Assembly: GCA_016928375.1 (NCBI GenBank)
Contig: JAFGKX010000138.1
Coordinates: 1 to 26,339 of the forward strand
Direction: 5' to 3'
Length of the DNA: 26,339 nt
Source: Candidatus Omnitrophota bacterium
GTDB lineage: Bacteria > Omnitrophota > Gorgyraeia > JABMRG01 > JAFGKX01
Part shown: positions 2,812-19,204 of the stretch, piece after piece
Layout: the number at the start of each line of letters is the position of its first letter
Numbering within the stretch: the stretch's first letter is position 1
Notes under the pieces: generated by a model
Databases searched by the model: none
Seen by the model: only the letters and a program-made list of their open reading frames with translations
What the model was told of the DNA's origin: nothing
Made by a program: the position numbers and the translations under genes

Positions 2812-3108
2812 ATGCCGACATACGAATACAGATGCGATAAATGCAAAAAAACATTCGAGGTTTTCCAAAGCATAAAAGCAAAACCCATAAATAAATGCCC
2901 TGCCTGCTCTTCGCCGGTTAGAAAGCTTATCAGCGCGGGAGGCGGTATTTTATTCAAAGGTTCAGGTTTTTATACAACAGATTATCGAAGCAAACAATAT
3001 AAGGAAAAGCAAAGCAAGGAAAAATCCGGCAGTATAACCTGTCCAAAAACAGGCCTGCCTGCCGATAGGCATGGAAAATCCGCGGATTGCTCATCATGCA
3101 AAGGATAA
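2812..3108 (+). CDS. FmdB-family zinc-ribbon protein (putative regulator) with Cys-containing C-terminal tail
   Basis: MPTYEYRCxxC...CPAC zinc ribbon followed by the family-typical FKGSGFYTTDY segment. Confidence 0.9.
   Translation: MPTYEYRCDKCKKTFEVFQSIKAKPINKCPACSSPVRKLISAGGGILFKGSGFYTTDYRSKQYKEKQSKEKSGSITCPKTGLPADRHGKSADCSSCKG
3054..3074. repeat. 21-nt palindromic element, in-frame within the FmdB-family gene
   Basis: CCTGCCTGCCGATAGGCATGG. The first 11 nt are identical to the intergenic copy at 6014-6034. Both derive from the perfect palindrome CCTGCCTGCCGGCAGGCAGG. Confidence 0.75.
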
Positions 3109-5979: not shown

Positions 5980-5980
5980 C

Positions 5981-6053
5981 CCCTCGCTAATAATAAGTCC
6001 TCGCACTTGCTCGCCTGCCTGCCGGCAAGGCAGGGACTTAAGTAATGCTCGGG
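5981..6053. repeat. Three-layer nested palindromic element
   Basis: Outer arms CCC-TC-GC (5981-5987) / GC-TC-GGG (6047-6053). Inner TAAGTCC-TC-GC-actt-GC-TC-G...GGACTTA (5994-6040). A 21-nt palindrome sits in the inner right arm. Confidence 0.7.
6014..6034. repeat. 21-nt near-perfect palindrome (CCTGCC family)
   Basis: CCTGCCTGCCGGCAAGGCAGG, which is the perfect 20-nt palindrome plus one extra A. Confidence 0.85.
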
Positions 6054-6054
6054 A

Positions 6055-6077
6055 CAAAATTTGTAAAACAAATTTTG
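6055..6077. promoter_or_regulatory. AT-rich perfect inverted repeat abutting the ribosome-binding site (operator-like)
   Basis: CAAAATTTGT-aaa-ACAAATTTTG. Its last base is the first G of the Shine-Dalgarno GGAGG (6077-6081) of the ABC ATPase gene. Confidence 0.5.
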
Positions 6078-6088
6078 GAGGCTTAAAA

Positions 6089-7192
6089 ATGGCACAGGTT
6101 AGCTTGCGTAACGTTAGCAAGATGTTTACGCCGAATTCATACGCGGTAAAAGATTTTAATCTCGGCATAGAAAACAAAGAATTTCTTGTCCTGGTAGGGC
6201 CTTCCGGATGCGGAAAATCCACGACGCTTAGGATGATAGCGGGGTTAGAAGAAATTTCTTCGGGAGAGATTTATATAGGCGACAGGTTAGTGAACGATAT
6301 TCCCCCAAAGGACAGAAACATTGCCATGGTATTCCAGAATTACGCGCTTTATCCGCATATGACTGTTTACGAGAATATGGCATTCGGGCTTAAATTAAGA
6401 AGATTGCCTAAACAGGAAATAGATCAGAGGGTAAGAGACGCTGCCGAGGTGCTTAGTATTACCAAGCACCTTAATAAGCGCCCGAAAGAACTCTCCGGAG
6501 GCGAAAGGCAAAGGGTCGCGGTTGGAAGAGCCATAGTCAGAAAGCCTCTGGTGTTTTTATTTGATGAGCCTTTAAGCAACCTGGATGCAAAAATGCGCGT
6601 TCAGATGAGAACAGAGATCAACAAGCTTCATATAAAACTTCAGACAACCATGATATACGTAACACACGACCAGGTAGAGGCCATGACCATGGGCACCAGG
6701 ATAGTTGTTATGAAGGACGGTATAATACAACAGATAGACGACCCGATAACTCTTTACGATAATCCCACCAACAAATTCGTAGCAGGATTTATAGGCTCTC
6801 CGCCGATGAATTTCATGAACGGGCTGCTGATAAAGAAAGACGGAAAATTCCATTTTAATGAAGGCAATTTTTCTGTCAGGGTAAACGATGATATGAGGGA
6901 TAGCCTTGCCCCGCATCTGGACAAAGAAGTTATTTTCGGAATAAGGCCCGAAGATATATATGACAGGTTGTTTGCCCAGGGCGCTTCCGAAGATAACGTA
7001 ATCACCTCCACCTGTGAAGTATATGAACCCATGGGCGCGGAGGTATTCTTACACCTTAACAGCGGTAAACACACGTTTATCGCGAGAGTAGGCGGCCACG
7101 ACAGGCCTGCTGTCAATCAGGACCTTGAGATGGTGCTCAACATGAGTAAAGCTCATTTCTTCAATGCTAAAACAGAAAAGGTAATCATATAA
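6089..7192 (+). CDS. Carbohydrate ABC importer ATP-binding subunit (MalK/UgpC/MsmX family)
   Basis: Walker A GPSGCGKST, VFQNYALYPHMTV, signature LSGGERQRVA, Walker B FLFDEPLSNLD, H-loop YVTHDQ, FVAGFIGSPPMNF and C-terminal TOBE region. SD GGAGG at 6077-6081. Confidence 0.96.
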   Translation: MAQVSLRNVSKMFTPNSYAVKDFNLGIENKEFLVLVGPSGCGKSTTLRMIAGLEEISSGEIYIGDRLVNDIPPKDRNIAMVFQNYALYPHMTVYENMAFGLKLRRLPKQEIDQRVRDAAEVLSITKHLNKRPKELSGGERQRVAVGRAIVRKPLVFLFDEPLSNLDAKMRVQMRTEINKLHIKLQTTMIYVTHDQVEAMTMGTRIVVMKDGIIQQIDDPITLYDNPTNKFVAGFIGSPPMNFMNGLLIKKDGKFHFNEGNFSVRVNDDMRDSLAPHLDKEVIFGIRPEDIYDRLFAQGASEDNVITSTCEVYEPMGAEVFLHLNSGKHTFIARVGGHDRPAVNQDLEMVLNMSKAHFFNAKTEKVII

Positions 7193-17764: not shown

Positions 17765-19204
17765 ATGCCGAAACGCGTAGTTATACTGGGCGCCGGAATA
17801 GCCGGATTAAGCGCTGCGTGGGAATTGTCCAAAGAAGGCATTGATGTGGATGTGATAGAATCCCAGCCGTGCGTAGGGGGGCTTTGCCGCAGCATAAGAA
17901 AAAATGATTTTATTTTTGACCTGGGCGGGCACAGGTTTGTTACTAAAGATACGGCGATTTTCAATAAAATCGAAGGCTTGCTCGGAAACGATCTGATGGT
18001 AAGGCGCAGAAAAAGCGTCATTTATCTTAAAGGCAAATTTTTCGCATATCCTCCGGAATTGTATGACATATTGCGCAAGATGCGCCCCGATATTTCAGCA
18101 AGATGCGCCTTTGATTTTTTTATGGTAAAATTCGGCGCCTATTCCGGAATGCAGGATATTTCTTTGAAAAACTGGGTTTTAAAAAGGTTCGGCAGGACCA
18201 TGTACGATATTTATTTTGGCCCATATTCAAAGAAACTATGGGGCATTGCGCCGGATAAAATATCAGCGGATTGGGCAGGGCAGCGCATTTCTCTGCTTAA
18301 TATAATGGACGTTGTCCTGCGCCTGTTATCCGGAAGAAATAATTCTCCCAGGACTTACGCGCATAATTTTATTTATCCTAAAAAAGGCATAGGCCAAATA
18401 GCGCAGGCCATGGCAGAGGAAATTACTTCCAAAAACGGCAGAATACACTTAAACTCCATAGTAGAAAAAATAATTTTAGACCGGGGCCGCATCAAAAGCA
18501 TAATTTACCGGCAATCCGGCGTAGAAAAAGAGATATCCGCAGAATTAATTGTTTCTACTATGCCTCTGCCGGAGTTTATGCTAAGCATTGAGCCAAAAAT
18601 AAGCGGCAGCCAGCTGCATACTGCAAAATCTATGGCTTTCAGAGGCATTAAATTTGTTCATATAACGCTGGATAAAGAAAAAATTACCGATAATACATGG
18701 ATATATGTTCCGGAAGGAAAATATATATTTTTCAGGATACAGGACAGGAGAAACTGGAGCCCTTATGTTGTGCCCGAAGGGAAAAATGCCCTTACTTTGG
18801 AAATAGCATGCAATAAAGGCGATGATATATGGAATATGAATGATAACGCTTTGCTTAAGCGCTGCGTAAGCGGCCTGGAAAACATGGGGCTCATACGCCG
18901 TAAGGATATTTCAGGGTATTTTACGGAGAGCGCAGAACACGCTTATCCTGTATATTCACTTGGCTATAAAGAAAATGTTCAGCAAGCGTATGATTTTTTA
19001 TCCGGAATAAAAAATCTTATATCCATAGGCAGGCAGGGCCTTTACAGATATAACAATATGGACCATTCCATAAAAATGGGTTTATTGGCAGCTGATAACA
19101 TTTTGCACGATAATTGTGAACGCGATATATTCAGCGTGGCTACGGAAGATGTTATATTTGACTGGCAGCATTCAGGCTGTTGTGAAAGGGTATCAGGCAG
19201 ATGA
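17765..19204 (+). CDS. FAD-dependent oxidoreductase, UDP-galactopyranose-mutase-like / amine-oxidase fold
   Basis: GAGIAGL dinucleotide motif, GGLCRS, FDLGGHRF, YSKKLWG...WAGQRI, FFRI...NWS, HAYP, GRQGLYRYNNMDHS. Confidence 0.75.
   Translation: MPKRVVILGAGIAGLSAAWELSKEGIDVDVIESQPCVGGLCRSIRKNDFIFDLGGHRFVTKDTAIFNKIEGLLGNDLMVRRRKSVIYLKGKFFAYPPELYDILRKMRPDISARCAFDFFMVKFGAYSGMQDISLKNWVLKRFGRTMYDIYFGPYSKKLWGIAPDKISADWAGQRISLLNIMDVVLRLLSGRNNSPRTYAHNFIYPKKGIGQIAQAMAEEITSKNGRIHLNSIVEKIILDRGRIKSIIYRQSGVEKEISAELIVSTMPLPEFMLSIEPKISGSQLHTAKSMAFRGIKFVHITLDKEKITDNTWIYVPEGKYIFFRIQDRRNWSPYVVPEGKNALTLEIACNKGDDIWNMNDNALLKRCVSGLENMGLIRRKDISGYFTESAEHAYPVYSLGYKENVQQAYDFLSGIKNLISIGRQGLYRYNNMDHSIKMGLLAADNILHDNCERDIFSVATEDVIFDWQHSGCCERVSGR

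Follow-up and report, generated by a model that had tools for sequence, protein, structure and literature searches.

The stretch of DNA analysed here (the window, 26,339 nt) is contig C40 of a 1.24-Mb metagenome-assembled genome (MAG) of a Candidatus Omnitrophota bacterium (G000, hereafter the source genome; 161 contigs, 41.6% GC, 90% complete). At 2812..3108 on the + strand it carries a gene of the FmdB zinc-ribbon family, which encodes 98 amino acids and was called from its open reading frame (ORF) and translation (TIGR02605, 1.8e-19; PF09723, 2.1e-16). Within this gene, positions 3054..3074 hold a 21-nt block, CCTGCCTGCCGATAGGCATGG, to which no strand is assigned. It reads in frame as LPADRHG and lies within three edits of a GC-rich 20-nt palindrome, CCTGCCTGCCGGCAGGCAGG (the core), which is dispersed through the AT-rich source genome. 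An earlier note, made from the letters of the window alone, had described an in-frame 21-nt element in this gene, and the letters agree. Deletion of the 21 nt keeps the frame and gives the product CPKTGKSADC, again as described there. The insert boundaries can slide by 2 nt, with GG on either side. The seven extra residues sit in the variable C-terminal tail between conserved cysteines, Cys77...Cys93-x2-Cys96, where they widen the spacing from C-x8-C to C-x15-C. We suggest that 3054-3074 is very probably a translated insertion of a mobile tiny repeat; this reading concerns insertion and translation and implies no mover.

The block is an imperfect copy. It shares its first 11 nt with an intergenic 21-nt element at 6014..6034, CCTGCCTGCCGGCAAGGCAGG, as the earlier note had stated. 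The same note took both for a perfect 20-nt palindrome plus one base, which is true of the element at 6014-6034 (the core plus one A) and wrong for 3054-3074, which is three edits away. Read as a 20-mer, the 3054 copy differs from the core by three substitutions and one extra flanking base; read as a 21-mer, by two substitutions and one inserted T. As single-stranded DNA (ssDNA) it folds into a weak hairpin, at -4.0 kcal/mol, where the core reaches -8.0. Its reading frame is of the LPAGRQ type, the same as in the coding copies of other phyla described below.

The site is empty in orthologues. FmdB orthologues are present in 57 of the 61 genomes searched, with the source genome counted. Three relatives from the same family read CPKTG-EKKDC or CPKTG-KQEGC, against CPKTG-LPADRHG-KSADC in the source genome. 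At the DNA level the relatives have ACA GGC GAA/AAG and the source genome has ACA GGC CTG CCT GCC GAT AGG CAT GGA AAA, and deletion of the 21 nt gives back ACA GGN AAA. The nine nearest homologues among 5.8 billion proteins all lack exactly the seven residues (e.g., TCPMT-------GKDADC). Their identity to the query is 57-78% over alignment A1 and 60-72% by BLASTP; the nearest named ones are Omnitrophica MAGs, and no homologue above 72% identity by BLASTP was found among the 5.8 billion proteins. Hence the empty site that had been predicted is seen in 12 of the 12 nearest homologues, in forms such as CPKTG-EKKDC and CPMT-GKDADC.

Further coding copies were sought by scanning each copy of the family for spanning ORFs. 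Methionyl-tRNA formyltransferase (Fmt) of the source genome carries +21 nt, PWPGAYT[CLPAGQA]G..., and the seven residues are missing in 10/10 orthologues. PdxJ carries two tandem 21-nt copies, RYAD[ACLAGRRACLAGRQ]AKNY, whose 14 residues are missing in 15/15 orthologues. The idea that a minimal palindrome writes short peptides into proteins thus extends to two more genes, with 7 residues in Fmt and 14 in PdxJ.

The 3054 copy belongs to a real multi-copy family. The source genome holds 9 perfect copies of the core (C128, C67 and C4 carry such copies), 31 copies within two edits and 35 within three edits, the 3054 copy being among the 35, and a Markov-shuffled control genome has no core match within three edits. 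Of these 35 copies, 21 are 20 nt long and 14 are 21 nt long. They are arranged as singlets or as directly abutting tandems, and for a perfect palindrome the orientation is undefined. The 11-mer has 51 exact matches on both strands of the 1.24-Mb genome; in the window it has 4 matches with at most one mismatch against 0.20 expected, a number that 0 of 100 shuffles reach. The motif is thus commoner genome-wide than chance allows, as had been anticipated.

These counts bear on the view that the seven residues are an ordinary lineage-specific indel in a variable linker, with a chance likeness to the palindrome. The C-terminal tail of FmdB is indeed variable in length, and in the same gene the zinc-knuckle codons of a CPAC motif (TGC CCT GCC TGC, 2899-2910) match 9 nt of the palindrome arm by chance. 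However, no match within three edits occurs in the shuffled genome, the match at 3054 covers exactly the seven extra residues, and Fmt and PdxJ repeat the pattern. We consider a chance indel hardly credible. The lesson of 2899-2910 is that short arm matches within Cys-Pro-Ala-Cys motifs are not members of the family.

The repeat inserts precisely, as 20 nt or sometimes 21 nt, without target-site duplication or a strong target motif. Three unrelated longer repeats occur in filled and empty forms, each with the palindrome at one fixed position. The search pattern for the host repeat ...CTCGCACTTGCTCG|GACTT... matched 20 copies: 13 lack the palindrome, 6 contain it and one breaks off at a contig end. 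One more filled copy, the seventh, lies in a variant host (C8:2448), and the insert position is identical in all filled copies. The host repeat ...GAGCGAAGCG|AAGCAATC... is found twice empty and four times filled, and ...CCGCCAAAGGCG|GATCCGCC... three times empty and twice filled. Filled and empty paralogous repeats differ by exactly the 20- or 21-nt block with no target duplication, and a tRNA-derived sequence holds an exact 20-nt insert, GGATA|core|GAGC, likewise without duplication. The flanks of 130 exact copies contain no target motif, the sole signal being at position -1 (A 40%, T 9%). The landing places are other repeats, spacers just upstream of ribosome-binding sites, fragments of tRNA genes and, occasionally, genes.

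Several sites looked like loop/stem junctions. Targeting of hairpin junctions was rejected, as the reconstructed empty sites of 168 copies show no stronger folding than 1321 control sites in their vicinity (p = 0.31) and the junction classes are alike.

The same sites allow us to weigh the possibility that the palindrome is immobile and is a functional site, such as a protein-binding site, a terminator or an mRNA-stabilising hairpin, that arose and is kept by selection. Many isolated copies adjoin a ribosome-binding site (CAGGCAGGGAGG-N-ATG), and the sequence is identical across the class while its flanks diverge, as at the tRNA-Arg fragment locus of the source genome and its relative G027. 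Against this, point mutation cannot repeatedly build a clean 20-nt block in Fmt, PdxJ, GatB and RfbB that is missing from their orthologues, filled and empty paralogous sites differ by the exact block, and nested and tandem copies exist. An immobile site is therefore quite improbable; copies may have acquired a function after insertion.

The palindrome is not confined to the source genome. With at most one mismatch the 20-mer is found in 32 of the 61 relatives at class level. Copy numbers run from 0 to 35 per genome, and some copies form abutting doublets; a reversed control word gave no matches in these 61 genomes. A scan across phyla with one genome per species yielded at least 119 stretches, to which all counts of listed loci in this text refer. 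The carriers belong to Patescibacteria, Omnitrophota, Bacteroidota, Planctomycetota, gamma- and deltaproteobacterial MAGs, Bdellovibrionales, Thermodesulfovibrionales and Chloroflexi, and those from Bacteroidota include the cultured isolates Winogradskyella echinorum KCTC 22026, Longitalea luteola, Flagellimonas yonaguniensis and Flavivirga sp. Their flanks are always unrelated. Viral contigs contribute 35 stretches with the 20-mer. The searchable literature yielded no description of this palindrome, and a string search there gave unrelated primers alone.

Among the viral copies, at least six exact ones lie on one 29.5-kb contig (IMGVR_UViG_3300037242_000417; L252, L259, L260), several of them within a longer repeated unit ...CCCGTAG|core|GGGCGGCACAATCTAGCCC.... 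On two high-GC viral contigs (L233, L256) the palindrome separates the T-arm of a tRNA-Met-like sequence from its variable loop, ...CATAACCACGAGG|core|TCGCCGGTTCGAATCC....

Long open frames contain fewer of the copies at the listed loci (roughly 27%) than of random positions (roughly 69%). Where a listed locus falls within a recognisable gene (FtsK, RfbB, GatB, ScpB-like and others), the frame stays open across the copy, which reads xLPAGRQx. This cysteine-free LPAGRQ frame is the one in which every recognisable gene reads the 20-mer (loci L045-L136; C128, C35 and C99 of the source genome). The CLPAGR and PACRQAG frames occur in the 21-nt variants of the source genome, in spurious ORFs and, as PACRQAG, in a fusion of HsdS and a GIY-YIG nuclease domain (L093). 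The use of one frame in recognisable genes suggests selection on the encoded peptide.

Inside genes the length of the insertion follows a rule. All four copies within genes of the source genome are 21 nt long, while elsewhere 21 copies have 20 nt and 10 have 21 nt; the enrichment of 21-nt copies in genes has a Fisher p = 0.019 by copies and 0.048 by events, with PdxJ counted once. The predicted excess of 21-nt copies in genes (4/4 against 10/31 elsewhere), with 20-nt copies among those outside, is therefore observed. The extra base is in the central loop of the Fmt copy, in the left arm of the PdxJ copies, and in the right arm or flank of the FmdB copy. Copies of 20 nt reach into genes solely at the last ~9 codons (DnaG, ...SEPAGRHGV*; a GGDEF protein, ...SLPAGRQGV*) and otherwise lie between genes, within other repeats or in tRNA fragments.

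Two genes from other phyla show that the element itself need not have 21 nt. For the size of these insertions close orthologues were used, since homologues from the PDB were too imprecise. GatB of a 0.7-Mb genome from another phylum has a net gain of 15 nt, made of a 20-nt copy gained and 5 nt of target lost. RfbB (dTDP-glucose 4,6-dehydratase; L279, G062:C17) has a net gain of 42 nt, or 14 residues, in which a 22-nt copy encloses an exact 20-mer; neither the 20-mer nor the 22-nt piece alone would hold the frame. Both inserts are missing from orthologues of 72-83% identity, and no genuine gene broken by a 20-nt copy was found in the 119 listed loci. The filter acts on the net length, a multiple of three, and not on a special 21-nt element, and different genes arrived at a frame-keeping net length by different junction routes. 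The proposal that only variants of 3n length survive in genes thus stands for the net length and falls for the element (+15 in GatB, +42 in RfbB).

We also considered that the element is removed from RNA or bypassed by the ribosome, in an intron-like or 'byp'-like manner, so that its length would be irrelevant. Copies inside tRNA-like sequence would suit such a process. But every copy in genuine genes keeps the frame, frame-restoring deletions yield no believable protein, and the tRNA-embedded copies that were checked lie only in fragments or duplicates, which makes removal from RNA very improbable. The intron-like reading of genes split by 20-nt copies was rejected, as the merged ORFs are not believable proteins.

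We suggest the following course of events for the insertion-and-translation reading. The 21 nt at 3054-3074 would go back to an old insertion of a tiny non-coding repeat and would since have decayed in part. Copies that land in genes would stay in the RNA and be translated, here as LPADRHG. Insertions that break the frame would also arise and would then be purged by selection. An enzyme encoded elsewhere may act on the palindrome in trans and move it in the form of a single-stranded hairpin.

One class of candidate enzymes is the REP-associated tyrosine transposases (RAYT), which move repetitive extragenic palindromes (REP). The source genome has three RAYT-like Y1 genes of family PF01797, at C57:3490-4056, C99:4502-4984 and C76:112-780, which match NF047646 ('REP-associated tyrosine transposase') with 83.8, 78.4 and 64 bits at a cut-off of 80. 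The earlier note had pointed to such an enzyme, and the genes are indeed present, but none is flanked by the palindrome. If the palindrome were a classical REP element mobilised by a RAYT of the Y1/HUH type, precise insertion without target duplication would fit single-strand HUH transposition; moreover, the 5' end of the RAYT gene on C76 carries CCCACCTGCCGGCAAGCGGG, a palindrome akin to the core but diverged from it, and a 21-nt copy lies 760 nt from the RAYT gene on C99. On the other hand, no core within two substitutions is found on the RAYT contigs, the core flanks 0/3 of the RAYT genes, and the inverted repeats that do flank them are unrelated to it save for a 16/20-similar palindrome at C76:806-825. 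A Y1 gene lies within 8 kb of only 1 of the 119 listed loci, and 54 of the 61 relatives have Y1 genes whether or not palindromes are present. The palindrome has no conserved GTAG head and no conserved flank, and it forms singlets or direct tandems, not inverted doublets. The 20-mer is also identical across phyla, whereas REPs vary with each RAYT (PMC3116915). A classical REP origin is thus unlikely, and we give a similarly small chance to one of the three RAYT-like transposases being the mover.

Another candidate emerged from the neighbourhood of the copies. In an unbiased clustering of ORFs around the 119 listed loci the top family is a GIY-YIG nuclease of ~85-95 residues, whose median distance to the palindrome is 32 nt. 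The recurrent layout is a tRNA 5' fragment whose D-arm or anticodon arm holds the palindrome, then the GIY-YIG ORF, then an intact tRNA; it is carried by C121 of the source genome, by the relatives G016, G027 and G060, by WWE3 and other phyla, and by one viral contig. In the source genome the gene encodes 86 residues (C121:8934-9191), lies with the core 26 nt upstream and is the sole PF01541 match. A GIY-YIG gene stands at most 41 nt from a copy at 5 of the 119 listed loci and in the source genome (at L110 the copy is near-exact, with two mismatches), and 4 of 40 sampled GIY-YIG genes of relatives lie 25-60 nt downstream of a copy. One viral contig likewise has a GIY-YIG gene beside a copy. 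The probability of this adjacency by chance is below 1e-6. The copy on C121 is in the 5' fragment of tRNA-Arg(TCT) and not in the working tRNA; the tRNA-embedded copies checked across phyla are also in fragments or duplicates only, and the neighbouring tRNAs, wherever called, are intact and of the same kind where this could be checked. The nearest solved structure to the C121 nuclease is the UPF0213 protein BH0048 (1zg2, E 2.4e-4).

Several details of these cassettes are worth recording. On C121:8900-9300 (L170:1400-1800) the GIY-YIG gene has a 33-nt 5' fragment of tRNA-Arg(TCT) on one side and the intact tRNA-Arg(TCT) on the other. The cassette stands downstream of tRNA-Pro and has the perfect 20-nt palindrome in the D-loop of the fragment, where it interrupts a direct repeat that would otherwise be able to delete the cassette. 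In the relative G027 (L223) the layout is the same and the palindrome is identical, with diverged flanks. In a Thermodesulfobacteriota MAG (L093:3861-4150) the palindrome, read as PACRQAG, is followed after 41 nt by a GIY-YIG domain in frame within an HsdS-like gene, the two being placed between the target-recognition halves of this type I restriction protein.

Small GIY-YIG nucleases named Ssn, of clade cd10448, were shown to cleave ssDNA beside the dispersed hairpin repeats that belong to them (Chenal et al. 2025, PMC11893778). Because of this biochemistry, a small GIY-YIG enzyme is a plausible reader of the hairpin described here. We regard it as possible, at clearly less than even chances, that an Ssn-like nuclease such as the one beside the source-genome copy is the mover; beyond this enzyme and the RAYT-like transposases, the rest of the probability goes to another or unrecognised process. 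A bolder version, which we hold to be doubtful, is that the 20-nt palindrome is the cognate hairpin of pan-bacterial tiny Ssn-like GIY-YIG cassettes that settle in tRNA genes, and that the nuclease, or repair of its single-strand cuts, copies the bare hairpin. If this were true, the palindrome would be the smallest known mobile DNA, letter-identical in distant phyla and their viruses, and could lengthen conserved proteins, most of them housekeeping ones, by 5-14 residues.

Several observations weigh against this account of insertion and movement. The account would need a one-step route from a 20-nt copy to a net multiple of three in an essential gene. With relatives from the same family as the closest genomes compared, the FmdB insertion is dated as younger than the family-level split and may be far from recent. 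As for the movers, G027 has four copies and no Y1 transposase, and G003, a single contig with 12 copies, has no small GIY-YIG gene detectable with the query used. Copy number shows no correlation with the number of Y1 genes (rho 0.15, p 0.26) and a weak one with the number of GIY-YIG genes (rho 0.25, p 0.057), both uncorrected for phylogeny. The adjacency to GIY-YIG genes could come from neutral tRNA fragments of the cassettes collecting palindromes; it could also come from selection on the cassette. Finally, the published SRM search pattern matches twice in the genome and once in the control, and no match holds the core or a core arm. Adjacency to RAYT genes and the copy-number links to RAYT and GIY-YIG genes were set aside as tests of the mover, being weak or absent, and each candidate has a counter-example genome.

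Among known systems, small dispersed repeats of heterocystous cyanobacteria (SDR4-6; Elhai et al. 2008, Genome Res 18:1484, cited via PMC4390886 and PMC3116915) are reportedly 21-27 nt long, hairpin-forming and mobile-looking. The palindrome resembles them as a tiny hairpin repeat with precise insertion, nesting in other repeats (including the self-nesting in RfbB) and no known mover. In HIP1, SDR5 goes in between nucleotides three and four (PMC4390886). The present element has no fixed target word of this kind and is a perfect 20-nt palindrome. Its sequence is probably unrelated to those of SDR1-8. It is also common to many phyla and viral contigs, while the SDRs belong to one cyanobacterial group, and it stands in frame in conserved genes whose orthologues have the site empty.

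Rickettsia palindromic elements (RPE; Ogata et al. 2000) are said to be selfish, to insert in frame in genes and to be translated as tolerated extra peptides; PMC1779305 mentions them too. The insertions in FmdB, Fmt and PdxJ, missing from orthologues, are alike in this respect. However, RPEs measure roughly 100-150 nt and occur in Rickettsia only, whereas the palindrome has 20-21 nt, is mostly intergenic and crosses phyla.

A conserved 5' GTAG head reportedly stands next to the REP palindrome (Nunvar 2010, Ton-Hoang 2012). Our element shares with REPs and their doublets (REPIN) a short, GC-rich, multi-copy palindromic nature and RAYT-like genes in the source genome, but it lacks the GTAG head, inverted doublets and clustering beside RAYT genes. 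It is, moreover, identical in unrelated phyla and found inside genes. REPs are thought to be moved as ssDNA hairpins by a Y1/HUH enzyme encoded elsewhere (PMC3116915). With Ssn and its SRM repeats (PMC11893778) the common trait is a small single-domain GIY-YIG gene beside a dispersed multi-copy hairpin repeat; the palindrome fails the degenerate SRM motif HGTCWY... and stands on one side of the gene only, and the nearest solved relative of the C121 nuclease is a UPF0213 protein (1zg2). That paper describes neither in-frame coding insertions nor tRNA-fragment cassettes, and the word 'tRNA' occurs in it 0 times. The two 10-nt arms could be read as the abutted inverted repeats of a miniature inverted-repeat transposable element (MITE), but there is no target-site duplication at the tRNA-derived and paralogous sites.

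In fungal mitochondria, the GC cluster of yeast var1 is a GC-rich hairpin repeat. Palindromic microsatellites are reported from Fusarium mitochondria (PMC7218506). Like the palindrome, the fungal elements are GC-rich hairpins spread in AT-rich genomes and may sit in coding regions. They differ in being organellar, longer or more variable, and unrelated in sequence and host range. The palindrome fails the defining tests for membership among REP/RAYT elements, MITEs, RPEs and SRMs, and its behaviour is closest to that of the cyanobacterial SDRs (tiny, precise, nested) and the Rickettsia RPEs (in-frame, translated).

New here are the orthologue-verified empty sites for three genes of the source genome and for two from other phyla, the rule of a net multiple of three and the various ways in which it is reached, the paralogous sites that occur both filled and empty, and the negative RAYT tests. 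Fmt, PdxJ, GatB, RfbB and FmdB are clean cases of a 20-nt sequence surviving as a loop of 5-14 residues. They lower the size limit for 'selfish DNA in proteins' several-fold below the Rickettsia RPEs and place the 3054 element among the smallest copied-around DNA known to rewrite proteins. The net-length rule is a direct readout of selection filtering insertions. Since many phyla and viral contigs contain this one word, conserved machinery must recognise the palindrome, and this machinery can be sought in culturable hosts. For annotation, we note that copies make spurious ORFs (PACRQAG/LPAGRQ peptides), change C-termini and break contigs.

Elsewhere in the window, 19027..19037 holds a solo right arm, AGGCAGGCAGG, with no recognisable left arm and no strand assigned, which is either a decayed half copy or chance. 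The source-genome repeat GTCATTGCGAGCGAAGCG...AAGCAATC (C4:3587, C15:1932, C104, C6, C138, C143) hosts the palindrome in four of its six copies; it resembles the head of the Neisseria NTS/SRM repeats (CGTCATT...) and does not match the published SRM pattern. The intergenic copy at 6014..6034, also without an assigned strand, is nested exactly between ...CTCGCACTTGCTCG and GACTT... of a larger host repeat of about 80-100 nt, called type A (5980..6082, + strand), which is its landing pad and lies immediately upstream of the GGAGG ribosome-binding site that serves an ABC ATPase gene at 6089. The type A repeat consists of two hairpins (TCCCTCGCTAAT...CTCGCACTTGCTCG...GCTCGGGACAAAATTT...) and is found at 19 other places in the source genome. 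Most of its copies end in the GGAGG ribosome-binding site of the next gene (GGAGG-N-ATG), like a portable 5' leader.

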